Notes under the pieces: generated by a model
What the model was told of the DNA's origin: nothing
What the model saw: only the letters and a program-made list of their open reading frames with translations
The model's database searches: none
Translations under genes and position numbers: made by a program
In this document: piece after piece, positions 7,350 to 57,442 of the stretch
Layout: every line of letters starts with the position of its first letter
How positions within the stretch are numbered: position 1 is the stretch's first letter
Source of the DNA: an uncultured Enterobacteriaceae bacterium
Lineage (GTDB): Bacteria > Pseudomonadota > Gammaproteobacteria > Burkholderiales > SG8-39
DNA: 64,000 nt
Assembly: GCA_964601155.1 (NCBI GenBank)
Contig: CAZRMO010000003.1
Location: forward strand, 21,066-85,065
Reading direction: 5' to 3'

Positions 7350-7441
7350 GGAGAGGTGGCCGAGCGGTCGAAGGCGCACGCCTGGAAAGCGTGTATACGG
7401 GTCAAACCGTATCGCGGGTTCGAATCCCGCTCTCTCCGCCA
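7350..7441 (+). tRNA. tRNA-Ser (anticodon GGA), class II with long variable arm, encoded CCA
   Basis: Acceptor GGAGAGG/TCTCTCC, D-arm GCCGAGCGGTCGAAGGC, anticodon loop CTGGAAA, long variable arm, T-arm GCGGGTTCGAATCCCGC, discriminator G + CCA. Confidence 0.93.
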
Positions 7442-8187: not shown

Positions 8188-10608
8188 ATGACGAGTAGCA
8201 CGGCGCAAACTGAGGTGCTCGGAAGGCTGCAAATCGCCCAGCAAACGCTGGATGCGCTTCCGGATGAGCGCGTGATTGCCGAGTTCACTGCGCGTGCCTT
8301 GCTGGAGGTCCCAGGCGTATCGAAGGCGCATCTGTGCCTGCGTCCGGCTCCGGCCTCGTCGCGGGCCGATTTCGAATCTGTTTGTCGGAGCTGCGCCGTC
8401 CACCTTGGCGACACTTCCGCCGCGCGGACTCCGGAATGCGCGCTCGCGCCGAGGGCCGGGTATCGCGTGTTCTGGCTGAGCACCGCACGTGGAATTTATG
8501 GACTCCTTGCCGTCCAAATTGGTGACCGGCGCCGATTCCTCGAATACGAACCCCAGATCGAAAACCTCGCCAATGCGGTCGCGCGCGCGATCGAGTCCGC
8601 GCGCTATGTCGCACAACTGAAGCAAGCCAACGACGAGCTGGCGCAAGCGCGCGAGTCGCTGGAACGCACGGTGGCCGAGCGCAATGCGGAACTGAAGGAG
8701 AGCGAGGCGCGCTTTCGCAGCCTGACCGAAATGTCCTCCGACTTCTACTGGGAGAGCGACGCCGAGCACCGGCTTAGCGCGCGCGGTTCGGCGGTAAAGA
8801 AACAGAGCACGGTCTCGGTATTCCAGCGCGGCGCACAGATCGGGCAAAGGCGCTGGGAGATTTCGTATCTTTCACCAGACGAAGACGGCTGGCAGGCGCA
8901 CCGGATGGCGCTCGACGCGCATCAGCCGTTTCGCGGCTTCGAGTTCTCGCGCTTGGGCACCGATGGCGCGGAGCGCTTTCTTTCGATCAGCGGTGACCCG
9001 GTGTTCGATGCCTCCGGCGCCTTCACCGGCTATCGCGGCGTCGGCAGCGATATCACCGAGCGCAAAGAGGCCGAAAGGAAGATTCATCGGCTGACCCAAC
9101 TTTACGCCGCGTCGAGCCAATGTAGCGAGGCCATCGTGCGCTGCGCCAGCGAGGAAGAGTTGTTCCTGCAGGTCTGCCGCGTTGCGGTGCAGTTCGGCGG
9201 CATGAAGATGGCATGGATCGGCATGATCGACCCGGATACGCGGATGGTCCGGCCTGTGGCAAGCTTCGGCGATCGAGCCGATGAGTATCTGCGAGGCGCT
9301 GAAATCTCGGCGGACGCCGACAGCCCGTTCGGACGTGGTTATAGCGGTACCGCCATACGCGAGGACCGACCAGTATGGTGTCAGGACTTCCGGAAGGAGC
9401 CAAGTACCGCCGCCTGGCATGAGCGCCGCGCGCGCTTCGACTTTGGTGCGTCGGCCTCGCTGCCGCTGCATCGAAGCGGCGTACCGGTTGGCATACTTGA
9501 TCTGTATGCGGGCGAAGTCGGCGCCTTCGACGAAGCCGCGCGCAAGCTGCTGGTCGAAATGGCGACTGACATGGACTTTGCGCTCGATAACTTCGCACGC
9601 GAGGCGGCGCGCCAGCAAGCGGAGGAAAATCTGCGCGCGGCGGCAGAGCAATTTCGCGGACTGGTCGAGCAGTCGGTTGCCGGCGTCTACATCGTTCAGG
9701 ACGGGAAGCTTGCCTACGCGAATCCGCGAGCGGCCGAGATCATCGATCAGGGCAGGGCGGAGGGACTGATCGGCACCGATCCTTTGCAATGGGTCGCGGA
9801 GCCCGACCGCGACAGGGTTGCCGAGAGCTTGCGCCGGCTGCTCGACGGTGAAGCGCAGAGCGTGGCATTGGATTTTGGCATTCTGCGCGGGGACGGCGTC
9901 GCGATCCAGGTCGGAGCGCATGCAGCTCGCGCGACGCACCAGGGCCGGCCCGCGGTCATCGGCCTGTTGCAGGACATCTCCGAGAAAAAGCGCGCGGAGC
10001 AGCAGATCCAGCGTTATCTCAAGCAGCTTCAAACCGCGTTCATGAGCACTGTCGAGGTCGCGACCACCCTGAGCGAAATGCGTGACCCGTATACCGCCGG
10101 CCACGAGCGGCGGGTGGGCAAGATCGCCGCAGCGATCGGCACTGAGCTCGGCCTGGATGAGTCGCGCGTCGAGGGCCTGCGGGTGGCAGGCTTCCTGCAT
10201 GACATCGGCAAGATCACCATCCCGGCGGAGATCCTGTCCAAGCCCGGGAAACTTACCTCGATCGAATATAAGTTGATTCAGGGCCATCCGCAGTCGGGTT
10301 ACGACGTTCTGAAGGACGTCGAGTTCCCCTGGCCGCTGGCCGAAGTCGCGCTGCAGCACCACGAGCGCATGGACGGAAGCGGCTATCCGCAGGGCCTCAA
10401 GGGCGAGGCGATCCTGCTCGAGGCGCGCATCATGGCGGTGGCCGACGTCATGGAAGCGATGTCTTCGCACCGGCCCTACCGTCCTGGCTTGGGTATTGAC
10501 AAGGCGCTGGCCGAAATCGAACGCGGGCGCGGCAGCGCATACGACCCGGCTGTCGCAGATGCCTGCCTGCGCCTGTTCCGGGAGCGCGGCGACCCATTGC
10601 CGGCATGA
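8188..10608 (+). CDS. Multidomain PAS/GAF sensor with C-terminal HD-GYP domain (c-di-GMP phosphodiesterase type)
   Basis: HD-GYP signatures FLHDIGK and HHERMDGSGYPQGL. Upstream coiled coil, PAS-like, GAF-like and second PAS-like regions. ATG 8188 with AGGAG upstream is preferred to the GTG at 8080, which overlaps the MEDS gene. Confidence 0.85.
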   Translation: MTSSTAQTEVLGRLQIAQQTLDALPDERVIAEFTARALLEVPGVSKAHLCLRPAPASSRADFESVCRSCAVHLGDTSAARTPECALAPRAGYRVFWLSTARGIYGLLAVQIGDRRRFLEYEPQIENLANAVARAIESARYVAQLKQANDELAQARESLERTVAERNAELKESEARFRSLTEMSSDFYWESDAEHRLSARGSAVKKQSTVSVFQRGAQIGQRRWEISYLSPDEDGWQAHRMALDAHQPFRGFEFSRLGTDGAERFLSISGDPVFDASGAFTGYRGVGSDITERKEAERKIHRLTQLYAASSQCSEAIVRCASEEELFLQVCRVAVQFGGMKMAWIGMIDPDTRMVRPVASFGDRADEYLRGAEISADADSPFGRGYSGTAIREDRPVWCQDFRKEPSTAAWHERRARFDFGASASLPLHRSGVPVGILDLYAGEVGAFDEAARKLLVEMATDMDFALDNFAREAARQQAEENLRAAAEQFRGLVEQSVAGVYIVQDGKLAYANPRAAEIIDQGRAEGLIGTDPLQWVAEPDRDRVAESLRRLLDGEAQSVALDFGILRGDGVAIQVGAHAARATHQGRPAVIGLLQDISEKKRAEQQIQRYLKQLQTAFMSTVEVATTLSEMRDPYTAGHERRVGKIAAAIGTELGLDESRVEGLRVAGFLHDIGKITIPAEILSKPGKLTSIEYKLIQGHPQSGYDVLKDVEFPWPLAEVALQHHERMDGSGYPQGLKGEAILLEARIMAVADVMEAMSSHRPYRPGLGIDKALAEIERGRGSAYDPAVADACLRLFRERGDPLPA

Positions 10609-12320: not shown

Positions 12321-13310
12321 GCATTCGGATGCGGGTGATCTCCCAATGGAATTGGACGCGTTGCCCAATAACGGACGCTCCAGGCGTGCCCTGCATTGCG
12401 ATAGATTGAGTGCAAGCGTAGCGACTGCGTACGGAACCGTACAGACAGCCTAGTAAGACCAGCCTAGATTACCGTATGAACTCAGCATATGAACACGACG
12501 TGCTTCAATTGCAGGACGAGCGTCAATTGCAGAACGTGCAGCACCCGGCCAAAGGCGAATTCGCAGTAGGTCGGCAATTTACGTGGCCTCGCTACGAAGC
12601 GAAACCTCTTCAAGACCTACGCTGCCCAGTCTGCGGAACCTTCGGATGCTACGGCTGCTGATGCTTCATAGACTCTAGCTCGCTTGGCGCTTACACGTGG
12701 CGAGGTCATCACGGTCGTATCTGCCAGATGGCTTAGGTCAACTGCGAGAACGGTTATTTTCCTGGCTGATTGCGGCTGTTCGAATCGGCCGATCAAACAA
12801 TTGGCGCGTCTCTCCTGTAAGGACATCGACGGTTCTACACAGAGGATGCCTTGTGTGACGCTCTTTATCCTGGCGTGACCTGGCAGGCATGATCAAGCCG
12901 CCGCGGCGGCGATGTTTTGCGGTCGCCACGCACGCGATAAAGGATGGCAAATGGCGCTTACGTGACTGGAAAAAAATCCTCGGAGCGCCGCTTGAGCATG
13001 TGTCTGTCGATCTCCCGCCAACAAGGCTGTTTACCGATATGATTCATAGCGTTAAGACAGTCGCAAGCTCCGTAATCGCGTCGTAGATACCCTCATTATT
13101 CCCGCACGCTATCCAAACCCGCCTGCCGACCTCCTCTGATACCGCCACCGGCGGTGCGCCAACTATTCCTGCCGGACTTGTAACCGATTTTCGTTTGCGG
13201 GCGAACTACCTGTCAGACCGCGCTAAATGCATCGATTCCGGTGCGAACTGCGCGGTCTTGTATCCGGCAGCGCGCCGCTGCTGATATTCGCACCTTCAAC
13301 CTTCGAGGAG

Positions 13311-13586
13311 ATGACTATGTCAGTTCGAAACAACCTGATCCAATCCGCCGTTGCCAGCATGTTGGCGTTCGGCATTGTCGCCGCCAGCGGCAGCGCCATG
13401 GCTGCCGACAAAAACATGGAAAAATGCTTTGGCATCGCCAAGGCGGGCAAGAACGATTGCGCGAGCAACAAGAGCGCGCATGCCTGTGCGGGCCAGGCTA
13501 CCAAAAACAACGACCCCAAGGATTTCGTCGCCGTGCCCAAGGGCACTTGCGACAAGATCGCGGGCGGCAGTCTGGCTGCAATGTAA
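13311..13586 (+). CDS. bufA: DUF2282-type secreted Cys-containing peptide (bufferin/BufA1-like RiPP precursor)
   Basis: Sec-type signal peptide (...[12 protein letters not shown]|ADKN). Mature part of about 60 aa with 4 Cys (EKC, NDC, HAC, GTC). GAGGAG directly upstream. Start is ATG 13311 or 13317. Stop TAA overlaps the next ATG. Confidence 0.8.
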
Positions 13587-14428
13587 TGAGCAAGCCCGCA
13601 ACACATGCCTTGCCGTGCACCGCGAGCATAGGGTTGCGGGCGCCTCATTACCGTGAGGTCTTGGAAGCTCTGCCCAGGCTCGCTTGGGTGGAAGTGCACA
13701 GCGAAAACTTTTTTGGCGGTGGCGCGCCCCTGCATACCCTGCTCAAGGTGCGCGAACACTATTCCGTCAGTCTGCACGGCGTCGGCATGGGGCTGGCTTC
13801 GACCGCGCCGCCCGACCAGATGCATCTGTCCGCCTTACAGCGCTTGTGCGAGGCGGTGCAGCCCGCGGCGGTGTCCGAACACCTGTGCTGGAACGCTGCG
13901 CCTGGCATGGTCATCAACGATTTGTTGCCGTTCCCCTATACGCAGGAAGCCCTGACCCATGTGTCGAACCGCGTGCAACAACTGCAGGAAAAGCTCGGCC
14001 GACAATTGCTGGTGGAAAATCTCTCCAGCTATCTATCGTTCGCGCAAGCCGAAATGAGCGAGGGCGAGTTTCTTGGCGAACTGAGCCGGCGCACCGGCTG
14101 CGGCATCCTGTTCGATGTGGAAAACCTGCATGTGAACGTGCGTAACCTGGGCGTGGACGCCGCGGCTTTTATCGAGGCCCTCCCGGCCGGCGCGGTCAAG
14201 GAATATCACCTGGCCGGTTACAGCGAGAGGGACGGCTGCCTGGTGGATACGCATGATCATCCGGTCTATCCCGAGGTGTGGGAATTGTACGAGCGGGTTC
14301 TGCAGCAAATCGGTCCGCGACCCACATTGATCGAATGGGACAGCGATATACCGGCATTGCCGGTGCTCATGGGCGAGGCGGCGAAAGCGCAGCAGCGCAT
14401 GGAGGACGTCCGTGTCTGCACTGCATGA
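13586..14428 (+). CDS. bufB: DUF692/UPF0276 TIM-barrel protein, MbnB-like multinuclear non-haem iron oxidase (MNIO)
   Basis: 281 aa from MSKPATH. Matches the UPF0276 consensus along its length: IGLRAPHY...VEVHSENFF...SLHGVG..L...VSEHL.W......NDLLPFPYT.EAL...V..VQ..LGR.LLVEN.SSY...EGEFL.EL.RRTGCG.L.DV.N..V.....G....F...LP...V.E.HLAG......L.DTH...V...VW.LY........GP.PTLIEWD.DIP. Confidence 0.9.
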   Translation: MSKPATHALPCTASIGLRAPHYREVLEALPRLAWVEVHSENFFGGGAPLHTLLKVREHYSVSLHGVGMGLASTAPPDQMHLSALQRLCEAVQPAAVSEHLCWNAAPGMVINDLLPFPYTQEALTHVSNRVQQLQEKLGRQLLVENLSSYLSFAQAEMSEGEFLGELSRRTGCGILFDVENLHVNVRNLGVDAAAFIEALPAGAVKEYHLAGYSERDGCLVDTHDHPVYPEVWELYERVLQQIGPRPTLIEWDSDIPALPVLMGEAAKAQQRMEDVRVCTA

Positions 14429-15176
14429 GGTCCTGTCCGAGTTCGCGCGGGTCATCGTGCGCGGCGAGGAGCCGTCGTCGCAGATGGTCGCGCGCTATCG
14501 CAACTATTCGTCCGAGGTCGCGATCGGAATCTATCAGAACAACTATCGCGGCAATCTGCACGACGCGCTTGCGGGCGCGTATCCGGTGGTCGAGCAACTC
14601 GTGGGCAAGGATTTCTTCAGGCTGATCACGCGGCAATACATCGGGGCGCATCTTTCGCACAGCGGCAACCTGCATCGCTACGGAGCGGAAATGGCCGAGT
14701 TTCTTGCGGCCTTTGAACCCGCACGCGGCCTGGTCTACCTGCCGGATGTTGCGGCGCTGGAGTGGGCCTGCCATCGCGCCTATTTCGCGGACGATGCCGC
14801 CGCGCTGGATCTCGGCAAGCTGGCGCAAATACCCGCCGAACAGTATTCCGACTTGCGCTTGCATACCCATCCGGCCTGCCGCCTCGTGCGCTCCGCGTAT
14901 CCGATCGCAGCGATCTGGCACGCTCACCAACCCGGCGCGGACAGCGACTTCCACATCGACCTCGATGCCGGCGCCTGCAACGCACTGGTCAGCCGCAAGG
15001 ACGATGTCGTGCTGGTCGGCGAATTGTCGGATGCCGAAGCGGCCTGGCTGGAAAGCATACAAAGGGGAGTGTCACTGGGCACTGCGACCGACGGCGCCCT
15101 GGAACTCCACTCGGACTTCGACCTGCAATCGACGCTGCTCAAACTGCTGCAACTGGACGTCTTGATCGACGCCTGA
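14412..15176 (+). CDS. bufC: DUF2063 protein (MbnC-like partner/RiPP recognition subunit of DUF692 enzymes)
   Basis: 254 aa. Signature IYQNNYRGNLHDALAGAYPVVEQLVGKDFF..ITRQYI. GTG start overlaps the DUF692 gene end by 17 nt. Confidence 0.85.
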   Translation: MSALHEVLSEFARVIVRGEEPSSQMVARYRNYSSEVAIGIYQNNYRGNLHDALAGAYPVVEQLVGKDFFRLITRQYIGAHLSHSGNLHRYGAEMAEFLAAFEPARGLVYLPDVAALEWACHRAYFADDAAALDLGKLAQIPAEQYSDLRLHTHPACRLVRSAYPIAAIWHAHQPGADSDFHIDLDAGACNALVSRKDDVVLVGELSDAEAAWLESIQRGVSLGTATDGALELHSDFDLQSTLLKLLQLDVLIDA

Positions 15177-15198
15177 AATCGATATTGGGAGGAATGGC

Positions 15199-15669
15199 AT
15201 GGGCATCTTCGCGCGCATTGGACGTTTTTATTACACCGCCTCGCATTGGCCGGAATACCTTGCGCCGCTGATGGACCTGGGCCTGCGCTTATATTTGGCA
15301 AACGTGTTTTTCAAATCCGGTCTGACCAAGGTGCAGAGCTGGAGCAGCACCCTGTATCTTTTCAGCGATGTATATCATGTGCCGCTGTTGTCGCCCGAAG
15401 TCGCAGCCACGATGGCCGCAAGCGCGGAATTAGGCCTCTCGGCCCTGCTGGTGATCGGACTGCTGGGCCGGTTTTCGGCTGCGGGACTTTTCATTCTTAA
15501 CGCGGTGGCGGTCATTTCCTATCCCGACCTAAGCCAAGGTGGCCTCAATCAGCACCTATCCTGGGGCATACTGCTCGGCGTGCTGCTGATTGCCAGCCGC
15601 GGCCAATGGTCCGTGGATGCGTGGCTGGAGAAGCGCCTGAAGGGCTTCACCGCCAGACTCCAGCGCTGA
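15199..15669 (+). CDS. DoxX family integral membrane protein
   Basis: 156 aa, four hydrophobic helices. LRLYLANVFFKSGLTK and AELGLSALLVIGLLGRFSA are typical of DoxX. Starts 22 nt after the DUF2063 gene. Confidence 0.8.
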   Translation: MGIFARIGRFYYTASHWPEYLAPLMDLGLRLYLANVFFKSGLTKVQSWSSTLYLFSDVYHVPLLSPEVAATMAASAELGLSALLVIGLLGRFSAAGLFILNAVAVISYPDLSQGGLNQHLSWGILLGVLLIASRGQWSVDAWLEKRLKGFTARLQR

Positions 15670-15802
15670 GCCCCTGCCTCCAAGGGGGGCGGCGCGACCG
15701 GCAGTGTGGTTCTGCCACCCACTGCTACGGCGTAGAGGCAGGCTCGGACTGCCATCGACTGACGGAAAACCTAAGAGGGTGACCGTTGTGTCGGGCGCAG
15801 CG

Positions 15803-19322: not shown

Positions 19323-20003
19323 ATGCGTATCCTGCTCGTCGAAGACGACCCGATGATCGGCGACGCGGTCTGCGTCGCCCTCAAAGATGCCGCTTATGCG
19401 GTGGACTGGGTGAAAGACGGCGCCGCTGCCGCCAGCGTGCTCGAACACGGCGAGCACCAGGCCGTGCTGCTCGATCTGGGACTGCCCAAGCGCGACGGGC
19501 TGGAAGTGCTGCGTCGCCTGCGCCAGGCGGGCAACACTGTGCCGGTCATCGTCATCACCGCCCGCGACGGCGTCGACGACCGCATCAAGGGACTCGATTT
19601 CGGCGCGGACGACTATCTGGTGAAGCCCTTCGACGTCAACGAATTGCTCGCCCGGCTGCGGGCCATCATGCGCCGCCAGGGCGGGCAGGCTGCGCCGGTG
19701 CTCACCAACGGCAGGGTGAGCCTCGACCCGGCGACGCGCGAGGCGCGCTGCGGCGATGCCGTGGAGCTTTTGAGCGCGCGCGAGTTCGCCCTGTTGCATG
19801 CGCTGCTGCTGCGTCCCGGCGCGATACTCACGCGTGCCGAACTGGAGGAGCGCATCTACGGCTGGAACGAAGAGGTTGAAAGCAATGCGGTGGACTTCCT
19901 CATCCACGGCGTGCGCAGAAAGCTCGGAGCCGATGTCATCAAAAATGTGCGCGGGGCAGGCTGGATGGTAAGCAAGGATGGCGAGGCAGGGCGCACCGAA
20001 TGA
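19323..20003 (+). CDS. OmpR/PhoB-family response regulator (QseB/BasR-like)
   Basis: Receiver MRILLVEDD...LLDLGLP(K)...DDYLVKPF and a winged-helix C-terminus. Stop overlaps the next start (ATGA). Confidence 0.9.
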   Translation: MRILLVEDDPMIGDAVCVALKDAAYAVDWVKDGAAAASVLEHGEHQAVLLDLGLPKRDGLEVLRRLRQAGNTVPVIVITARDGVDDRIKGLDFGADDYLVKPFDVNELLARLRAIMRRQGGQAAPVLTNGRVSLDPATREARCGDAVELLSAREFALLHALLLRPGAILTRAELEERIYGWNEEVESNAVDFLIHGVRRKLGADVIKNVRGAGWMVSKDGEAGRTE

Positions 20004-21358
20004 GGCTTTGGCGGCTTGCAGCTATTTCGATCGTCCTGAGTCTTGCCGCTTGCGCCAGTTACGCGCCAAAACCCCTGCCCGAACAGGTGAATCTGCCGCG
20101 GTCCGCGTCGGCCATCGCGGTCGATCCGGCGCGCCTGCCTTTTCGCAGCCTGTCCACTCATGTGTTCGATCCCGCGGACGGTCTGGACATGGACGAAGTG
20201 GCCATGCTGGCGGTGGCGAACAACCCGCAATTGCGCCAGGCGCGCGATGCTTTGGGCATCGCACGCGCCCAGTCCTTCGCCGCCGGCCTGCTGCCCGATC
20301 CGCAACTGGGCATCAGCTCAGACCACCCTACGAACGGCACTGCAGGCAATACCAACGCATTCAATCTCAATCCGAGTTACGACATCAATGCCCTGCTGCT
20401 GCGCTCATCGCGCAAGAATGCGGCAATGGCGCAGGAACAACAGGTGAATCTGGAACTGTTGTGGCAGGAATGGCAGGTGGTGAGCCAGGCGCGGCTGCTG
20501 TTCTCCCGCTTGACCGCGCAAGACAGCTTGATGAGGAAATTGCAGGCAGCCCGCACACTGTTGGCGGAGCGCTACCGGCGCAGCCAGCAGGCACTCGCGG
20601 CGGGCAACGTCACGCTCAATGTCGCCAGCGCCGACCTGGTGGCTTTGCAGGGCATCGAGCGCCGTATCAACGAGCTGGAACGCAGGCGCCTGACGAACCG
20701 CGCGAGCCTCAATCGCGTCCTTGGGCTGGCCGCCGACGCTCGGCTGCGGCTGGTGGGCGAACCCAAGGCGGCGGCCATCGATGCCGCCGCGGTGCGCGCC
20801 GGTCTGGAGCGGCGCCTCGCGCAGCGCCCGGATTTGCAGGCTCTGCAAGCAGGGTATAGATCCCAGGAAGAAAAGTTTCGCGGCGCGGTGCTGGCGCAGT
20901 TCCCGGCCTTGAATATCGGCCTCAGCCGCGCGCGCGATACCAGCGGGATTTACACGGTGGGTTTCGGTTTGACGCTGAGCCTGCCGATTTTCAACCGCAA
21001 CCGGGGCAACATCGCCATCGAGGACGCCACGCGCAAGAAACTGTACGACGAATACCAGAACCGGCTGAACGCCGCTTACGGCGAGGTCGCCATCGCGCTG
21101 GAAAACCTCCCTTTATTGCACAGCCAGTTGCGGCGTACCCGCAATGGCGTGCTTGAACTCGAAACCGTCGCAAAGCGCGCCGAAGCCGCGCTGCGGGCCG
21201 GCAACCTCGCCGCGCCCGATTATGTGCGGCTGCAAACCGCATTGCTGGACAAGCAAATCGAAGCGATAAACCTGCAAGAGGCCTTGATGGAACAAGAAAT
21301 CGCGCTGCAAACCCTGCTGGGTCCGGATCTGCCCGTGCGGAACAGGAGTTCGCAATGA
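20000..21358 (+). CDS. Efflux outer-membrane factor lipoprotein (TolC/NodT family)
   Basis: Lipobox LSLAAC. Two-repeat coiled alpha/beta OMF pattern. ATGA overlap with both flanking genes. Confidence 0.85.
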   Translation: MRLWRLAAISIVLSLAACASYAPKPLPEQVNLPRSASAIAVDPARLPFRSLSTHVFDPADGLDMDEVAMLAVANNPQLRQARDALGIARAQSFAAGLLPDPQLGISSDHPTNGTAGNTNAFNLNPSYDINALLLRSSRKNAAMAQEQQVNLELLWQEWQVVSQARLLFSRLTAQDSLMRKLQAARTLLAERYRRSQQALAAGNVTLNVASADLVALQGIERRINELERRRLTNRASLNRVLGLAADARLRLVGEPKAAAIDAAAVRAGLERRLAQRPDLQALQAGYRSQEEKFRGAVLAQFPALNIGLSRARDTSGIYTVGFGLTLSLPIFNRNRGNIAIEDATRKKLYDEYQNRLNAAYGEVAIALENLPLLHSQLRRTRNGVLELETVAKRAEAALRAGNLAAPDYVRLQTALLDKQIEAINLQEALMEQEIALQTLLGPDLPVRNRSSQ

Positions 21359-22377
21359 ACAAGCGTTGCCGGATGGTTTTCCTGAGCTTATTGCTGGCGT
21401 CGAGCCCACTCGCGCTTGCGGATGCGCCCAGCGTGCAGGTGCGAACGGTGATGTTGAAGCGCCAGCCCATGGCGGACACGGTCTCCGGCTATGGCGTGGT
21501 GTCGCCGGATACGCGCGCGCTGCAAATCGTCAGCCTGCCGCGCCCGGGCCGGATCGCGCGGCTGCTGGTGAGCGCCGGGCAGGTGGTCAAGAAGGGCGTG
21601 CCGCTGCTCGAGTTCGCAACCGGAGCCGGTGCCGCGCTGGCTTACCGGCAGGCGCGCCATGCCGTCGACTTTGCCCGCAGCGAGGTGGCGCGCATCGGGC
21701 AACTGGCCAAACAGCAGCTTGCCACGCAGTCGCAACTGGCGGCGGCGAAAAAGGCCTTGGCGGACGCCGAAGCCTCTTTGCGCGCGCAGGAGTCGATCGG
21801 TTCGGGGGAAGGAACGGAGAAGGTGAGGGCGCCTTTCGACGGCGTGGTGGTCGCGCTGCAGGCAGCCCAGGGCGACCGCCTCGCCGCGGGCGCGCCTGTG
21901 CTGCAACTGGCGCGTTCGGGCGGGCAGCGCGTGCTGATGGGGGTGGAGCCTGCCGATGTGGCGCAGGTGCGCCCGGGCATGGCGGTCAGCGTGGCTCCGG
22001 TATTCGATCCGGAATACAAGGTGGCGGGGCGCGTGGCGCAGGTATTCGGCATGATCAACCCGCAGACCGAATTCGTCGACGTGCTGGTGGCGGTGTCCGG
22101 CAGCGGGCTCATGCCCGGCACCAAGGTGCATGCCGAGATACAACTCAGCCGGAAGCCGGAGTGGGTCGTACCGCGCTCTGCGGTGCTGCGGGACGCTAAA
22201 GGCGCATATATTTTTCAGGTGCGCGCGGACAAGGCGCACCGGGTCGGCGTTCAAACCGGGCTCGAGCGCGACGGACTGATCGCCGTGCGCGGTGCATTTG
22301 CCGCGAGCGAGCCGGTAGTGAGTCTGGGCAACTATGAACTGCGCGACGGCATGGCCGTGCGCGAGAGCGGGCGATGA
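21355..22377 (+). CDS. Efflux RND periplasmic adaptor (membrane fusion protein)
   Basis: 340 aa. Signal sequence, lipoyl/alpha-hairpin/beta-barrel MFP pattern, translationally coupled on both sides. Confidence 0.85.
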   Translation: MNKRCRMVFLSLLLASSPLALADAPSVQVRTVMLKRQPMADTVSGYGVVSPDTRALQIVSLPRPGRIARLLVSAGQVVKKGVPLLEFATGAGAALAYRQARHAVDFARSEVARIGQLAKQQLATQSQLAAAKKALADAEASLRAQESIGSGEGTEKVRAPFDGVVVALQAAQGDRLAAGAPVLQLARSGGQRVLMGVEPADVAQVRPGMAVSVAPVFDPEYKVAGRVAQVFGMINPQTEFVDVLVAVSGSGLMPGTKVHAEIQLSRKPEWVVPRSAVLRDAKGAYIFQVRADKAHRVGVQTGLERDGLIAVRGAFAASEPVVSLGNYELRDGMAVRESGR

Positions 22378-25300
22378 ACGTCACGCAGTGGATGCAGGAG
22401 CATCGCCGCTCGATCCTGTTCCTGCTGGCCTTGCTGGCGCTGGCGGGCGCGCTGGCGGCGTTCAAACTGCCGGTCACCCTGTTTCCCAATGTGGATTTTC
22501 CGCGCGTCGTGGTGTCGCTGAACGCGGGCGACCGCCCCGCCGACCTGATGATGCTGTCGGTTACGCAGCCGGTGGAGGTAGCGGTGCGCCGGGTGCCGGG
22601 AGTACGCGACGTGCGCTCCACCACCAGCCGCGGGTCGGCGGATGTGTCGGTGAGTTTCGACTGGGGCACCAACATGGGCCTGGCAACCTCGCAGGTCAAT
22701 GAGGCGATCGCGCAGATCCTGCCAAATCTGCCGCCTGGCACCCAAACGGTAACCAAGCGCATGGATCCGACGGTGTTCCCGATTCTGGCCTACAGCCTGA
22801 CTTCCGCTACCCAGTCGCAGACCGCGCTCTACGATCTGGCGCAGTATCAACTGCGCCCCTTGCTTTCCAGTGTCAACGGCGTGGCGCGCGTCCAGGTGAT
22901 CGGCGGCGCGCGCGAGGAATACCAGGTCACCGCGGATCCGGCGCGCCTCATGGCTTACGGGCTGACGCTCGGCGACGTGGCGCAGGCCTTGAGCGCCGCC
23001 AACGTGGTCACCGCCGTGGGACGGCTGGAGGACCATTACAAGCTGTATCTGGAAATAGCCGATACCCGGCTGAGGAACATCCGGCAAATCGGCGACACCA
23101 TCATCAAAAGCGGCAGCAACGGCATCGTGCGGCTGGACGATGTGGCGGTAGTGAGCGACGGCGTGGTGCCGCAATGGATCAAGGTCAATGCGGATGGCCG
23201 CCCGGCTGTCCTGCTCGATATCTACCAGCAGCCCGGCAGTAACAGCGTGCGGATCGCGCGCGACGTGCACGCGAAACTCGCAGACTACCGTTCGCAATTG
23301 CCTCCCGGGGTCAAGCTTGCGAACTGGTACGACCAAAGCGTGCTGGTGGTGAATTCTGCTGCGAGCGTGCGCGACGCCATTCTCATCGGCATCGGGCTGG
23401 CGGTGCTGGTGCTGTTCGCCTTCCTGCGCAATCTCAAGATCACCCTGATCGCGGCAATAGTGGTGCCGACTGTGCTGGCGGCGACCGTGGTGTTGCTCTA
23501 CGCGCTGGGCATGAGTTTCAACATCATGACTCTGGGCGGCATGGCGGCCGCGGTGGGTCTGATCATCGACGATGCCATTGTCATGATCGAGCATATCGTG
23601 CGCCGCCTGCGCGGCGCTCCCGCCGAGCACCATGGCCGGGTGATGGCGGCGGCGATGGAATTCATGCGCCCGCTGGCAGGTTCGTCGGCATCGACCATCG
23701 TCATCTTCCTGCCCTTGGCCTTTCTCACCGGCGTGACCGGCGCATTTTTCAAGGCGCTGTCGCTGACCATGGCGGCGGGGCTGATCATCTCCTTCTTCGT
23801 CACCGCACTGGCGGTGCCGCTGCTGGCGGATCATTTTCTCAATGAGAAGGACGCCAACCAGAAAGAAGGCGGACGCATGACTGCCTGGATGCACCGCCGC
23901 TACGAAGCGGTGATGCAGCGGGTGCTGGCGCGGCCGATCCTGGTTCTTGTGATCATCCTGCCCCTGCTCGCCGCGGGCTTTCTCGCGTTTACCCATGTTG
24001 GCTCGGGTTTCATGCCGGTCATGGACGAGGGCGGATTCATCCTCGATTACCGCTCCCCGCCGGGGACCTCGCTCACCGAGACCAACCGGCTGCTGCTGCA
24101 GGTGGAGGCGATCATCAAGGCGAACCCGTACGTGGATACCTATTCGCGCCGGACCGGCACGCAATTGGGCGGCGGCGTCACCGAAGCCGACGAGGGCGAT
24201 TTTTTCGTGCGCCTGAAAGCGGGTCCGCGGCCGCCGATCGAGAAGGTGATGGACAATATCCGCACCCAGGTCGAGCAGAAGGTGCCCGGACTCAACATCG
24301 AGCTGGCGCAGTTGATGGAGGATCTGATCGGCGACTTGACCTCGGTACCGCAACCGATCGAGATCAAGCTGTTCTCCGATAATCCGCAGAAGCTGCAGAC
24401 TGCCGCGCACAAGGTTGTTGCGGCGATCGACAAAGTTCCCGGGGTAGTGGACACCAACAATGGCATTCGCCCCGCCGGCGATGCGCTCGACATCCGCGTG
24501 GATCGGGTAAAGGCCGCGCTGGAAGGGATGAACCCCGACAGCATCACGCAGATACTGCGCGGCTATCTGTCCGGGATCGTCACCACGCAGATTCAGAAGG
24601 GACCGAAATTGGTCGGCGTGCGCGTGTGGACGCCGCAGGACCAACGCGCCATAGTGCCGGATATCGGGAAATTGTTGATCCGCGCGCCCGATGGGCACGT
24701 GTTTCCGCTGAGGCGGGTGGCGCAGCTCGTGCCGGTCAGCGGCCAGCCGCAGATCGACCGGGAGAACCTGAAGCGCATGGTGGCCGTGACCGGCCGCATC
24801 AGCGGACGCTCGCTGGGGCCGGTGATCGCCGATATCCAGAAAGTGATGGCGACGCCGAACCTGCTGCCCAAGGGCATGTACTACGAACTCGGCGGCCTGT
24901 ACAAACAGCAGCAAATCGCCTTCAAAGGCTTGATGGCGGTATTCGCCGCGGCCGTCGGGCTGGTGTTTCTGCTGCTGCTGTTCCTGTACGAGAGCTTCCG
25001 CATGGCATTGGCGATCATGGCGATACCGCTGCTGGCGGTGTCGGCGGTATTCATCGGCCTGTGGCTGGCCGGCATCGAGCTCAACATCTCGGCGATGATG
25101 GGCATGACCATGATCATCGGCATCGTCACCGAGGTCGCCATTTTCTATTTTTCCGAGTACCGCGATCTGTTTCGCGAAATGCCGTTTCAACAGGCGCTGA
25201 TCGACGCCGGCAAGAACCGCATGCGTCCGATCGCCATGACCACGTTTGCAGCTATCCTCACACTGCTGCCGCTGGCCTTCGCGATCGGCCAGGGCTCCGC

Positions 25301-25427
25301 CATGCAGCAACCGCTGGCGGTGGCCATCATCTCCGGACTGGCCGTGCAGTTGCCGCTGGTGCTGCTGGTGATGCCGGTATTGTTCAGCCTGCTCGAACGC
25401 AGGCCCGAGGGGAGCGGGAACGCTTGA
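22374..25427 (+). CDS. RND efflux permease (AcrB/HAE-like)
   Basis: 1017 aa with 12-TM/2-loop architecture. TM4 GLIIDDAIVMIEH resembles the AcrB VDDAIVVVEN proton relay rather than the CzcA-type DFG...D...E. Confidence 0.9.
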   Translation: MNVTQWMQEHRRSILFLLALLALAGALAAFKLPVTLFPNVDFPRVVVSLNAGDRPADLMMLSVTQPVEVAVRRVPGVRDVRSTTSRGSADVSVSFDWGTNMGLATSQVNEAIAQILPNLPPGTQTVTKRMDPTVFPILAYSLTSATQSQTALYDLAQYQLRPLLSSVNGVARVQVIGGAREEYQVTADPARLMAYGLTLGDVAQALSAANVVTAVGRLEDHYKLYLEIADTRLRNIRQIGDTIIKSGSNGIVRLDDVAVVSDGVVPQWIKVNADGRPAVLLDIYQQPGSNSVRIARDVHAKLADYRSQLPPGVKLANWYDQSVLVVNSAASVRDAILIGIGLAVLVLFAFLRNLKITLIAAIVVPTVLAATVVLLYALGMSFNIMTLGGMAAAVGLIIDDAIVMIEHIVRRLRGAPAEHHGRVMAAAMEFMRPLAGSSASTIVIFLPLAFLTGVTGAFFKALSLTMAAGLIISFFVTALAVPLLADHFLNEKDANQKEGGRMTAWMHRRYEAVMQRVLARPILVLVIILPLLAAGFLAFTHVGSGFMPVMDEGGFILDYRSPPGTSLTETNRLLLQVEAIIKANPYVDTYSRRTGTQLGGGVTEADEGDFFVRLKAGPRPPIEKVMDNIRTQVEQKVPGLNIELAQLMEDLIGDLTSVPQPIEIKLFSDNPQKLQTAAHKVVAAIDKVPGVVDTNNGIRPAGDALDIRVDRVKAALEGMNPDSITQILRGYLSGIVTTQIQKGPKLVGVRVWTPQDQRAIVPDIGKLLIRAPDGHVFPLRRVAQLVPVSGQPQIDRENLKRMVAVTGRISGRSLGPVIADIQKVMATPNLLPKGMYYELGGLYKQQQIAFKGLMAVFAAAVGLVFLLLLFLYESFRMALAIMAIPLLAVSAVFIGLWLAGIELNISAMMGMTMIIGIVTEVAIFYFSEYRDLFREMPFQQALIDAGKNRMRPIAMTTFAAILTLLPLAFAIGQGSAMQQPLAVAIISGLAVQLPLVLLVMPVLFSLLERRPEGSGNA

Positions 25428-25551
25428 GCGAAATTGCGATGCCCCATTGCGGTCGCGCTAAGCATAGGCTAACGGTGGAGACGTAGAGTGACCGTCACGG
25501 CGGACGCAATTGCGTCCGGCGGCATTCGATCAACTCTACAGGAGCATCATC

Positions 25552-25887
25552 ATGAGAATCACACAATCTGTTCGTTTCGGCATCATCGGACTGGCCGTCC
25601 TCGGCGCTTCCCTCGCTTTCGCCGGCGTGAGCAGCGCCAATGAAGGGCACAAGAGCGACCCCGCCCTGATGTCTCAGGCCAAGATCAACATGGAACACGC
25701 CCGGGTAATCGCACTCAAAGCCCATCCAGGCAAGATTACCGACGAGGAGCTGGAGCAGGAAAAAGGCGGCAGCGGTCTGCGCTACTCCTTCGATGTCCAA
25801 AAGGGTAAGGTCACGCAGGAAGTCGGCGTGGACGCGAAGACCGGCAAGGTGCTGGAAAACGCCCCGGAAGGACCCAACGCGGATTAA
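25552..25887 (+). CDS. PepSY-domain secreted protein
   Basis: Signal peptide (LGASLAFAGVSSA). ARVIALKAHPGKITDEELEQEKGG..YSFDV......EVGVDAKTGKVLE is the PepSY pattern. AGGAG upstream of ATG 25552. Confidence 0.75.
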   Translation: MRITQSVRFGIIGLAVLGASLAFAGVSSANEGHKSDPALMSQAKINMEHARVIALKAHPGKITDEELEQEKGGSGLRYSFDVQKGKVTQEVGVDAKTGKVLENAPEGPNAD

Positions 25888-26071
25888 GCGCCGATCCTAT
25901 TTGGCGAATGCACAATAGCAGATGGAAGGCGCCCGTTTATCGACCGTTTTTTTAAACCTGCCGGTGCTGCCGATTCTGGCATTGCGCTTCGCGCGCTTTG
26001 ACAGGCGGACGGATAATGCGACGTGATGATATCCGGCGCCAATCAGCGGCACTGTTCCAGCGCGGCAGGCA

Positions 26072-26686
26072 ATGAATAGCCTGCTCGCCTCGGTCCATCC
26101 CTACATCGCCCAATACGGGTACGGCGCGCTGTTCGGCGTGCTGTTCGCGGAATCGTTTGGATTGCCGTTGCCGGGCGAGACCTTCCTCGTCGCCGCGTCC
26201 TTCCTCGCCGCGCAGGGCCAGCTCGACATCTGGCTCGTGGGGCTGACGGCATGGACAGCGGCGGTACTCGGCGACAATGTTGGTTACGCCATTGGCTTTT
26301 TCGGCGGCCGCAGGCTGGTGGTGCGCCATGGCGCGCGCGTGGGTATCAGCGCCGAGCGGCTGAAACGGGCGGAAAATTTCTTTGCGCATTACGGCCCGGA
26401 AGTCGTCATCGTCGCGCGCTTTTTCCCGGTGCTGCGGCAGCTCAACGGAATCGTTGCGGGCAGTGCCGGAATGGACTGGAGGCGCTTTGCGTTCTACAAC
26501 GCGCTGGGTGGGCTCCTTTGGGTTGGCGCATGGAGTGCGGGCGTCTACTATTTCGGCCAGCGGATTTCAGTATGGCTGCTGCGGCTTCGCACGGTAGAAC
26601 TTTGGCTGGCCGGCGCGCTGGCGCTGGCCCTGCTGGCCGGCGGCGCTTACTGGGGAATTTCGAAACGGTCGCGCAGCCGACGCTGA
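26072..26686 (+). CDS. DedA family membrane protein
   Basis: YGYGALFGVLFAESFGLPLPGE N-terminal signature and G..RFFPVLR motif. Confidence 0.88.
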   Translation: MNSLLASVHPYIAQYGYGALFGVLFAESFGLPLPGETFLVAASFLAAQGQLDIWLVGLTAWTAAVLGDNVGYAIGFFGGRRLVVRHGARVGISAERLKRAENFFAHYGPEVVIVARFFPVLRQLNGIVAGSAGMDWRRFAFYNALGGLLWVGAWSAGVYYFGQRISVWLLRLRTVELWLAGALALALLAGGAYWGISKRSRSRR

Positions 26687-26726
26687 GGCCGGACAAGCGC
26701 AAGACCATAGAAGGAGCGAGCAATCC

Positions 26727-28037
26727 GTGAGCAACTCCCTGCAACAGCGCTTGTCGGTCTGGCTGAGCATCACCATCGTCGCGACCGGGTTCCTCGCCGC
26801 CGCGGTTTCATTCGGGCTCGCCTACAACGAAGCGCAGGAGTTTCAGGACGACACCCTGCGCCAGATCGCAGCCTTGGTGGATACCGCCCGCCTGCCGTCC
26901 GATGGACAACGCTCCGTGGCGGCTCTGGATAACGATCCGGAGGAGCGAGTTGTCGTCCAGCGGCTTACGGCGTCGCCTGTGGTCGACGCCGCGCGGCTTG
27001 CGTTGCCGGCGGATTTGACGGTGGGGTTCCACACGCTCGATCTCGGAAGGACGCAATGGCGGGTATATGTCCGTACCGCAAGGAAGTCCGGTGAACGCAT
27101 TGCCGTAGCGCAGGAGACCCAGGTACGCAGCGAAGCCGCCGGCGACAGCGCCTTGCGCACGCTGCTGCCCTTGCTCGTGCTGATTCCCTTGTTGTCGTAT
27201 TTTTCCAGGCGCCTGGTCCGCGCCAGCCTGGCACCGGTTCGTGCCCTTGCCCGGGTGGCCGATGCCCAAGCGGAAGACAGGCCGGCCGCGCTGCCAGTCG
27301 CCAAAGTGCCGGAGGAGATCGCGCCGTTCGTGCAATCGATCAACCGGCTGCTTGAACGGATCAACCGCATGATGGAGCAGCAGCGGCGCTTTATCGCCGA
27401 TGCGGCGCATGAACTCAGAAGCCCGCTCACGGCGCTATCGGTACAGGCGCAAAATTTGCGGCAGGCTGGGTCCGTCGAAGTCCTGCGTGAGCGCGTGAAT
27501 CCCCTGCAGGCGGGCATTGAACGCGCGCGGCACCTGACCGAGCAGCTGTTGAACCTTGCCAGAACCCAAGCCGGAACTGCCAGCGAGACGGACGTCGATG
27601 TATCGATCATGGCGCGCGAACTGATCGCCGAGTATTTGCCATTTGCCGAAGCCAAGCGCATCGATCTCGGGCTCGATGAAAGCGCACGGCTTTCATTGCA
27701 CGTCTCGCCGGAGCCGCTGCGGCTGATCCTCAGAAATGGGCTGGAGAACGCATTGAAGTACACGCAGGACGGCGGCGAGGTCACGCTTCGGCTGCTGTCT
27801 GAAAACGGGCACGCGGTCATCGAAGTCGTCGACAATGGCCCGGGGATTCCTGTCTCGGAGCGCGAGCGGGTGCTCGATGCGTTCTACCGCATGCCGGATG
27901 CGGCCGGCGAAGGCAGCGGCCTCGGTCTGGCGATCGCCCGAGAAGCCGCGAATCGCCTCGGCGGCAGCATGAGCTTGCATGATCGCGGGGAAGCTCCGGG
28001 GCTCATCTTCCGTTACCGACAAGGCGCCGAATCATGA
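26727..28037 (+). CDS. Two-component sensor histidine kinase (periplasmic sensor, HAMP, HisKA, HATPase_c)
   Basis: H-box FIADAAHELRSPLT, N-box LRNGLENALKY, G1 VVDNGPGI, G2 GSGLGLAI. Two TM segments flank a loop of about 120 aa. Confidence 0.9.
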   Translation: MSNSLQQRLSVWLSITIVATGFLAAAVSFGLAYNEAQEFQDDTLRQIAALVDTARLPSDGQRSVAALDNDPEERVVVQRLTASPVVDAARLALPADLTVGFHTLDLGRTQWRVYVRTARKSGERIAVAQETQVRSEAAGDSALRTLLPLLVLIPLLSYFSRRLVRASLAPVRALARVADAQAEDRPAALPVAKVPEEIAPFVQSINRLLERINRMMEQQRRFIADAAHELRSPLTALSVQAQNLRQAGSVEVLRERVNPLQAGIERARHLTEQLLNLARTQAGTASETDVDVSIMARELIAEYLPFAEAKRIDLGLDESARLSLHVSPEPLRLILRNGLENALKYTQDGGEVTLRLLSENGHAVIEVVDNGPGIPVSERERVLDAFYRMPDAAGEGSGLGLAIAREAANRLGGSMSLHDRGEAPGLIFRYRQGAES

Positions 28038-56667: not shown

Positions 56668-56761
56668 CCATGCCCTTACTTGGTTATGATACGCGTTGGA
56701 GCAGCGTTCGTCCGGGCACAGCGCAAGCGGTGCGCACGCTCAGGTCCAAGGAGAGCATGCC

Positions 56762-57442
56762 ATGTCGCGCATATCTAGAGACGGGTTCATCGGGCTGGCG
56801 GGGATAGCGCTCGCGGCCGTGCTGCTTTTCTTCTTTGTACCTTCTCGTGCCGCCGGACCGCTGCCGAACCCGAAAATCGATACGCCCTTGGCGGCGGCAA
56901 AGGGCACGCAGACCGCCGTTTTCGCCGGCGGCTGTTTCTGGGGCATGGAAGGCGTGTTCGAGCACGTCAAAGGCGTCACGCGCGCCGTTGCCGGGTACGC
57001 CGGTGGCGGCGCGGCGACGGCGCACTATGAGATGGTGAGTACCGGTACCACCGGCCACGCCGAGTCGGTGCGCATTTCTTACGACCCCGCACGCATTTCC
57101 TACGGGCAGTTGTTGCAAGTGTTCTTTTCCGTCGCGCATGATCCGACCGAACTCGACCGGCAGGGTCCGGACGAGGGCACCCAATATCGCTCGGCCATTT
57201 TTTATGCCAACAGCGAGCAGAAACGCGTCGCCGAAGCCTATATTGCGCAGTTGGGCGCGGCGCATGCCTTTGCGCGCCCCATCGTCACCGAGGTAACGCC
57301 GCTGAAGGGATTTTACGCAGCGGAGGCCTACCATCAACACTATCTTGCGCTGCATCCGAACCAGCCCTATATTGTAATCAACGACCTGCCGAAAATCGCC
57401 AATCTGAAGCGCCAGTTTCCGGCGCTCTACGTCAGCGACTAG
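56762..57442 (+). CDS. msrA: Peptide-methionine (S)-S-oxide reductase with N-terminal signal/anchor
   Basis: Catalytic GGCFWG, then GHAESV..SYDP and YHQ.YL. Hydrophobic N-terminus FIGLAGIALAAVLLFFFV. AAGGAGAG upstream of ATG 56762. Confidence 0.88.
   Translation: MSRISRDGFIGLAGIALAAVLLFFFVPSRAAGPLPNPKIDTPLAAAKGTQTAVFAGGCFWGMEGVFEHVKGVTRAVAGYAGGGAATAHYEMVSTGTTGHAESVRISYDPARISYGQLLQVFFSVAHDPTELDRQGPDEGTQYRSAIFYANSEQKRVAEAYIAQLGAAHAFARPIVTEVTPLKGFYAAEAYHQHYLALHPNQPYIVINDLPKIANLKRQFPALYVSD

Follow-up and report, generated by a model that had tools for sequence, protein, structure and literature searches.

What four consecutive, tightly coupled genes make, and what switches them on, is the question raised by positions 13317 to 15669 of the 64,000-nt stretch of contig CAZRMO010000003.1 analyzed here (hereafter the window), which derives from an uncultured Burkholderiales/Gallionellaceae-like betaproteobacterium. 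An earlier reading made from the letters and open reading frames (ORFs), hereafter the sequence-only reading, had proposed an operon of the bufferin, or gig (gold-induced genes), kind, that is, one for a peptide made by ribosomes and modified after its translation (RiPP). Our analysis supports this proposal. The order of the genes (DUF2282, multinuclear non-heme iron oxidase or MNIO, DUF2063, DoxX) is the bufABCD/gig layout (PMC11626156), and the oxidase passed the protein family model of the bufferin maturase BufB. We conclude, with a probability of about 0.88, that the locus is a self-contained bufABCD operon of the Buf1 type, resembling gig operons. The four genes, as placed by the ORF table and the sequence, are:

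13317-13586, plus strand: bufA1-type precursor gene, 89 amino acids (aa), DUF2282/BufA1 family (PF10048)
13586-14428, plus strand: bufB1-type gene for the MNIO (DUF692), 280 aa (PF05114, NF050167)
14412-15176, plus strand: bufC1-type partner gene, 254 aa, with an N-terminal DUF2063/HvfC_N domain and a C-terminal beta3-alpha3 domain similar to a RiPP recognition element (RRE)
15199-15669, plus strand: bufD1-type gene for a DoxX membrane protein, 156 aa (PF07681)

The tight coupling described for these co-directional genes was seen again at each junction. The precursor stop codon TAA (13584-13586) and the MNIO start codon ATG (13586) share one A within TAATG (13584-13588), the MNIO stop codon (14426-14428) overlaps the partner gene, which starts with GTG at 14412, by 17 nt, and the 22-nt gap between the partner gene and the DoxX start codon (ATG, 15199) holds a GGGAGGA ribosome-binding site. 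The G+C content of the operon (0.59-0.64) is near the window mean of 0.63. One boundary had to be moved: the precursor had been read from 13311, but its start is most likely ATG 13317 because the N-termini of homologues align at MSVRNN, an AGGAG ribosome-binding site (13306-13310) lies 6 nt 5' of this codon, and the related locus L084 (L-numbers denote related loci) has ATC in place of the 13311 ATG while keeping the 13317 ATG. A further in-frame ATG at 13227, which opens a 119-aa ORF and serves as the start in some database entries, was rejected since the resulting extension is not common to the homologues. The search with profile hidden Markov models that had been suggested as a check was carried out, and all four products matched their expected Pfam families (DUF2282, DUF692, DUF2063, and DoxX) above the gathering scores.

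The precursor carries the features expected of a Buf1-type peptide. The DUF2282 profile (PF10048) matched it with an E-value of 7.9e-26 over all 53 model positions, and its 89 aa fall inside the 80-120 aa range of the DUF2282/BufA1 family. Residues 1-29 (13317-13403) form a predicted Sec-type signal peptide, recognized by hydropathy and alignment: its n-region is basic (R4), residues 7-26 are hydrophobic, and an A-M-A|A site follows, with the predicted cleavage SAMA|AD. What follows is a core of 60 aa (13404-13583) with cysteines at core positions 8, 19, 28, and 49 in the contexts EKC, NDC, HAC, and GTC, in agreement with the four-cysteine core of about 60 aa read earlier; its computed average mass, unmodified, is 6071.9 Da. 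In an alignment of 42 homologues, precursor residues C37, C48, C57, and C78 as well as His55 were invariant, the CFG.AKAG.NDC and AH.CAGQ motifs were invariant or almost so, and A27 and A29 of the predicted cleavage site were conserved or invariant. A database search returned 968 precursor homologues, the best of which, from a Burkholderiales metagenome-assembled genome (MAG), is 97% identical. A sequence search of the PDB gave no match to the precursor.

The enzyme was placed by curated models. The MbnB_TglH_ChrH profile (DUF692, PF05114) matched it with an E-value of 1.6e-98, and it scored 353.5 bits against the cut-off of 310 for NF050167, "MNIO family bufferin maturase" (BufB). It stayed below the cut-offs of the NCBIfam equivalogs HvfB (199 bits vs. 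360), MbnB (TIGR04159, 69 bits vs. 325), ApyH, and ChrH. Among structures, PDB sequence searches matched it to 3BWW (E-value 2.8e-30), TglH, and MbnB. The seven iron ligands of MbnB are His90, Glu133, Asp163, Asn166, His192, Asp208, and His210 (PMC9060507), and they align with H99, E144, D177, N180, H208, D221, and H223 of the window MNIO, all identical. By sequence, the protein is a bufferin-clade enzyme with an intact iron site. Homologues with approximately 50% identity were found on 501 plasmid/chromid records, and therefore the family is widespread.

For the third gene, PF09836 (DUF2063) matched the product with an E-value of 3.8e-20. Because a PDB sequence search gave no match to this partner protein, a fold search was used. 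Its AlphaFold2 model, built from a 41-sequence alignment, reached a predicted local distance difference test score (pLDDT) of 86.2 and a predicted template modeling score of 0.82; its N-domain is all-helical, and its C-domain consists of three strands (157-161, 189-196, 199-205) and then three helices. The only significant Foldseek matches were 3DEE (Neisseria NGO1945, the DUF2063 prototype; E-value 2e-5, probability 1.00) and, from the TglHI holoenzyme, TglI (8HI7_A/8HCI_A; E-value 4e-5, probability 1.00), both of which are known MNIO partner proteins. The fourth product matched the DoxX profile PF07681 (E-value 8.3e-16), and its top NCBIfam match was the HvfX family, with 60.7 bits under a cut-off of 80. 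DoxX occupies the same place in related operons; in Buf1-type clusters a fourth gene of this kind is common without being required. Its role had been called unsettled, which agrees with the literature, where bufD1 was dispensable for both modification and copper protection (PMC11626156).

How close the locus comes to a characterized system is best seen by comparison with buf1 of Caulobacter vibrioides (bufA1B1C1D1, CCNA_03363-03366), which likewise has four genes in the same order with DoxX last, a DUF2282 precursor with a Sec signal (predicted here) and four cysteines, a BufB-equivalog MNIO, a DUF2063 partner, and a sigma-F promoter core, GTAACC-N16-CGAA. In Caulobacter bufferin 1 the cysteines lie at core positions 12, 23, 31, and 52. 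Modification to a 5-thiooxazole lowers the mass of Cys II and of Cys III by 4.03 Da each, and Cys I and IV form a disulfide (PMC11626156). The spacing between successive cysteines is 11/9/21 in the window and 11/8/21 in Caulobacter, i.e., Cys II and III stand one residue farther apart here, and the core has 60 aa instead of 68. The Caulobacter buf1 operon also has sigF-nrsF as its neighbors, a pair that was not found in the window. The 5-thiooxazoles, the disulfide, Sec export, and copper binding have been established experimentally in Caulobacter, where BufB and BufC are necessary and sufficient for modification and DoxX is dispensable (PMC11626156). The 5-thiooxazole chemistry has been confirmed independently for related MNIO/DUF2063 systems, in a study that named the class captophorins and counted more than 20,000 clusters in RefSeq (PMC13097082). 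The sequence-only reading had taken the precursor cysteines as the targets of the enzyme. That part stands, but the precedent of Caulobacter Buf1 would lead one to expect modification of the central pair (II and III) only, with the outer pair joined in a disulfide.

Transferred to the window, this precedent suggests the following course. A BufB-BufC heterocomplex would bind the 89-aa precursor in the cytoplasm, the RRE-like C-domain of BufC holding the peptide, and the multi-iron center of BufB would use O2 in four-electron oxidations that turn core Cys19 and Cys28 into 5-thiooxazoles. The peptide would then be exported by Sec and cut by signal peptidase after Ala29, and in the periplasm a disulfide between core Cys8 and Cys49 may form. 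The resulting folded mini-protein of approximately 6.06 kDa would chelate excess periplasmic Cu(I)/Cu(II) and so protect the cell, as a buffer, from copper and soft metals akin to it. The membrane protein DoxX would have an accessory role, dispensable for the modification.

Two other groups of systems help to place the locus. The gig operon of Cupriavidus metallidurans (Rmet_4682-4685, RMET_RS24090-24075), which is linked to metal stress, is likened to it by layout, as a betaproteobacterial DUF2282-DUF692-DUF2063-DoxX set. The best plasmid/chromid matches, including a Cupriavidus oxalaticus record, are approximately 53% identical at the MNIO. The Hvf system of Haemophilus influenzae (oxazolin) and the fontiphorin system of Fontimonas (Buf_EGKCG; of the wider "captophorin" class) also combine an MNIO with a DUF2063 protein (and DoxX/HvfX), and the peptide on which they place 5-thiooxazoles is secreted, rich in Cys, and binds copper, as predicted by analogy here. 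Unlike theirs, the precursor in the window lacks EGKCG repeats, and the MNIO falls far short of the HvfB cut-off given above. Judged by these sequence comparisons, the locus is a sister branch to Hvf/fontiphorin and not a member. In every respect that can be read from sequence, the locus agrees with the Buf1 type and departs from the Hvf/oxazolin and methanobactin types.

The regulation of the operon had been left open by the sequence-only reading, which also stated that no extracytoplasmic function (ECF) sigma/anti-sigma or cop/cus genes flank it. The second statement holds for the window. As for the first, an exact sigma-F-type motif, conserved in relatives, was found upstream of the precursor gene and ends 111 nt before ATG 13317:

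13180-13205, plus strand: ECF sigma-F-type promoter motif, GTAACC (-35), N16, CGAA (-10), exact match (cttGTAACCgattttcgtttgcgggCGAAct)

In Caulobacter the site GTAACC-N16-CGAA drives buf1, buf2, sigF, and yedY (PMC3511200). The window, both strands counted, has a single exact copy of it, against 0.03 copies expected, and one-mismatch copies are at chance level there (4 found, 2.3 expected). Related bufABCD operons whose upstream sequence was long enough numbered 77; they are phylogenetically related and include a few near-duplicates and hence are not independent events. Of these, 40 have the exact motif within 250 nt upstream of bufA and 50 have it with at most one mismatch. With a background of 0.0022 exact copies per 250 nt, this represents an approximately 235-fold enrichment. 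Other exact copies in related loci precede a gene pair for an ECF sigma factor of 179 aa and, after it, an NrsF-family anti-sigma factor (PF06532, E-value 1.4e-40); in 31 related loci this sigma gene is found no more than 10 kb from the bufABCD operon. Methionine sulfoxide reductase genes of the secreted MsrB (SelR-domain) kind that adjoin sigF-nrsF in related loci likewise have the motif in front of them, which parallels the presence of the periplasmic YedY/MsrP in the Caulobacter sigma-F regulon. Examples are:

L023, 18067-18727: motif before a secreted MsrB gene
L003, 5476: motif before a secreted MsrB gene
L033, 19613: motif before a secreted MsrB gene
L047, 16857: motif before a secreted MsrB gene

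These sequence patterns are best read as placing the operon in a SigF/NrsF-type regulon; the genes of its regulators would lie elsewhere in the genome. By analogy, envelope metal stress would free a SigF-type ECF sigma factor from its NrsF membrane anti-sigma factor, both encoded outside the window, and the released sigma factor would start transcription at 13180-13205.

A second kind of wiring was seen in the related operons, about one third, that lack the sigma-F motif. Upstream of bufA they carry another conserved, ECF-like motif, TGTAAG[GA]-N15-CGACTAA, hereafter type 2, which is absent from the window. It goes with a divergent ECF sigma factor that is distantly related (21-25% identity; L062, 8677-9237, minus strand) and with a small anti-sigma factor containing HxxxCxxC (L062, 8504-8764, minus strand). 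Both promoter types occur in the MAG SMAG_U14111, at one operon each (L001 and L002). The type 2 loci include:

L062 (motif copies at 9265 and 9647), L005, L014, L016, L017, L030, L035, L041, L045, and L060: type 2 motif
L063, L073, L076-L078, and L081: type 2 motif, further examples
L062, 9353-9487 and 9516-9638: tiny genes for Cys-rich peptides (examples MSQTCKTEEGKCGACGGHK... and MSLMCSMDGCKQKQGMCIHEK...), with similar genes in L014, L016, L060, and L063

These tiny genes, one or two per locus, encode Cys-rich peptides with a single transmembrane segment and lie between the sigma gene and bufA in type 2 loci. In L062 the motif copy at 9265 precedes the first of them and the bufA copy at 9647 comes after the second; L005, L014, L016, and L078 likewise have an extra plus-strand copy upstream of the bufA copy.

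Several observations weigh against the assignment as we have drawn it. The AlphaFold2 model of the precursor reached a pLDDT of only 49, too low in confidence to be used for judging its fold or the predicted disulfide. BufC and DoxX scored below the NCBIfam HvfC and HvfX cut-offs, an expected outcome, since it is the Hvf branch that these models describe. No cognate sigma/anti-sigma pair was found within the window, where neither Pfam searches of ten ORFs of 110-250 aa nor tblastn with the ECF sigma factor of a related locus detected a sigma factor; the sigma dependence is therefore argued from the motif itself. The flanks of that motif are GTAACCgaTTTT and CGAAc in the window, compared with the clade consensus GTAACCtTTTT and CGAAt. 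About one third of the related operons use the other ECF-type motif, and hence the wiring varies within the clade. Finally, metal specificity is ambiguous, as the metals that gig operons respond to (Au, Cd, Cu, and Cr) differ between species.

This last point leads to the rival that survives best, namely that the same operon with the same chemistry serves another target, either a soft metal (Au, Cd, Hg, Ag) or, together with DoxX, protection against periplasmic oxidative or sulfur stress. Depending on the species, the inducer of gig/buf operons is gold, cadmium, chromium, or copper, and in Bordetella it is BvgAS; fusions of MerC to bufferins hint at functions with further metals, and DoxX hints at further kinds of stress. 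The promoter motif at secreted MsrB genes of relatives links the same wiring to an oxidative-damage function, and the closest relatives belong to iron-oxidizer and mine-drainage lineages. All the 5-thiooxazole peptides characterized so far, however, bind copper and protect against it, and the precursor is indistinguishable in sequence from the Buf1 consensus. We therefore regard a target other than copper as unlikely and retain the copper-buffering Buf1-type operon as the preferred assignment.

A different objection concerns GTAACC-N16-CGAA itself, which might not be a functional promoter, transcription being driven instead by an unrecognized promoter, of the sigma-70 or another kind, or regulated through a repressor on a palindrome in the leader. 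Besides the missing sigF/nrsF pair, at least one chance match to the motif arose in 3 of 100 shuffles of the window, and the inverted repeat in the leader could be an operator. Set against this are the place and orientation of the motif, which fit a promoter of bufA, its enrichment at this position across relatives, and the pattern of conservation between the window and its two nearest relatives, L001 and L084: the -35 and -10 elements are identical in all three, and the spacer varies. A scan of the plus strand upstream of bufA found no sigma-70 promoter. A non-functional motif is, on balance, quite improbable.

The leader and the 3' end of the operon have structure of their own:

13206-13316, plus strand: probable 5' untranslated leader (tentative), with hairpins at 13215-13258 and 13260-13287 and AGGAG at 13306-13310
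15670-15802, no strand assigned: spacer, G+C-rich and structured, at which doxX and the GGDEF gene converge

If transcription starts 6-8 nt after the -10 element, the leader would tentatively measure approximately 105 nt. Its RNA fold has an energy of -48.2 kcal/mol (z = -3.8 against shuffles), and the hairpin at 13215-13258 is kept in L001 and L084, with a few compensatory changes among the three sequences compared. The inner part of this hairpin is also a palindrome in the DNA, a conserved inverted repeat (TGCATCGA..TCGrTGCg), and therefore an operator is possible instead of an RNA hairpin. An Rfam scan of the whole window gave only a tRNA (7350-7438) and nothing in the leader. It is very unlikely, in our estimate, that the structured leader adds a second regulatory layer, as an RNA element or a repressor operator sensing metal or redox state, to an operon with a remotely encoded sigma factor, whose peptide may serve a metal other than copper. 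If true, such leader regulation would be a layer undescribed for bufferin operons, in a lineage related to iron oxidizers. The spacer folds with -77 kcal/mol (z = -4.4) and may mark the end of the transcript; a terminator scan found no canonical U-tract terminator after doxX.

Methanobactin biosynthesis (MbnABC) was also compared. Like the window, it has an MNIO TIM-barrel with the same set of iron ligands and a partner protein, and its heterocycle is Cys-derived and binds copper, as predicted by analogy here. MbnA, however, has a leader and not a Sec signal, whereas the precursor here is a DUF2282 protein, the MNIO is far below the MbnB cut-off, and methanobactin is an oxazolone/thioamide chalkophore secreted for copper acquisition, not a periplasmic buffer. 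That the window MNIO installs such oxazolone/thioamide pairs, or some other modification, in place of 5-thiooxazoles is hardly credible: the two structures are isomers that have been confused in the literature for related systems, but the enzyme passes the BufB and not the MbnB model, the oxazolin structure has been revised to 5-thiooxazole (PMC13097082), and all characterized DUF2063-dependent MNIOs are reported to form 5-thiooxazoles.

The surroundings of the operon are variable and gave no further clue to its function. Its nearest genomic relatives are MAGs of uncultured Burkholderiales, Gallionella, Sideroxydans, Ferrovum, and Nitrosomonadales, the closest contig showing 90.5% DNA identity over 2.6 kb. 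The four-gene operon occurs in at least 80 related genomes with differing neighborhoods. Upstream in the window are genes for a PAS/GAF/HD-GYP protein and an acyl-CoA synthetase, and downstream those for a convergent GGDEF protein, a methyltransferase, and a clan-AA protease, none with an evident functional link. Just upstream of the promoter, a stretch of approximately 860 nt (12321-13180) has a lower G+C content (0.54-0.56) and no recognizable gene. Its small ORFs were treated as non-coding, as they had no Pfam match and similarity to the nearest relative starts only at 12760; one of them, a 61-aa ORF at 12476-12661, has a Cys-rich end (CPVCGTFGCYGC) and likewise no Pfam match.

Farther downstream, a cluster at 19323-28037 encodes a response regulator (QseB/PmrA-like), an outer membrane efflux protein (OEP), a membrane fusion protein (MFP), a resistance-nodulation-division (RND) permease, PepSY and DedA proteins, and a QseC-like histidine kinase, and it was considered as a cus/czc system. 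The RND pump was under all curated family cut-offs, including every heavy-metal one, multidrug models scored higher (592 vs. 494 bits), and its fourth transmembrane helix (TM4) motif has a DD pair. Such a pair in TM4 is typical of multidrug RND pumps. A link to metal efflux was not adopted for these reasons. A methionine sulfoxide reductase A is encoded at 56696-57442, with its PMSR domain at residues 73-225 after a 72-residue N-terminal extension; the protein may be exported, and the sigma-F motif was not found upstream of its gene.

The operon is thus of an already known kind, real but ordinary, and standard annotation would name it. Newer Pfam releases name the BufA1 and HvfC_N families and NCBIfam names the enzyme, and automatic annotation is expected because these models name three of the four genes directly. 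As bufferins/captophorins are an experimentally characterized RiPP class with over 20,000 clusters on record, the locus adds little new biology. Its modest value lies in regulation, as a sigma-F promoter is present although sigF-nrsF is not nearby. The bufferin operons of this clade appear to be wired to one of two ECF sigma factors, which helps to predict the conditions of their expression and may be useful for studies of metal-stress regulons in Burkholderiales related to iron oxidizers.

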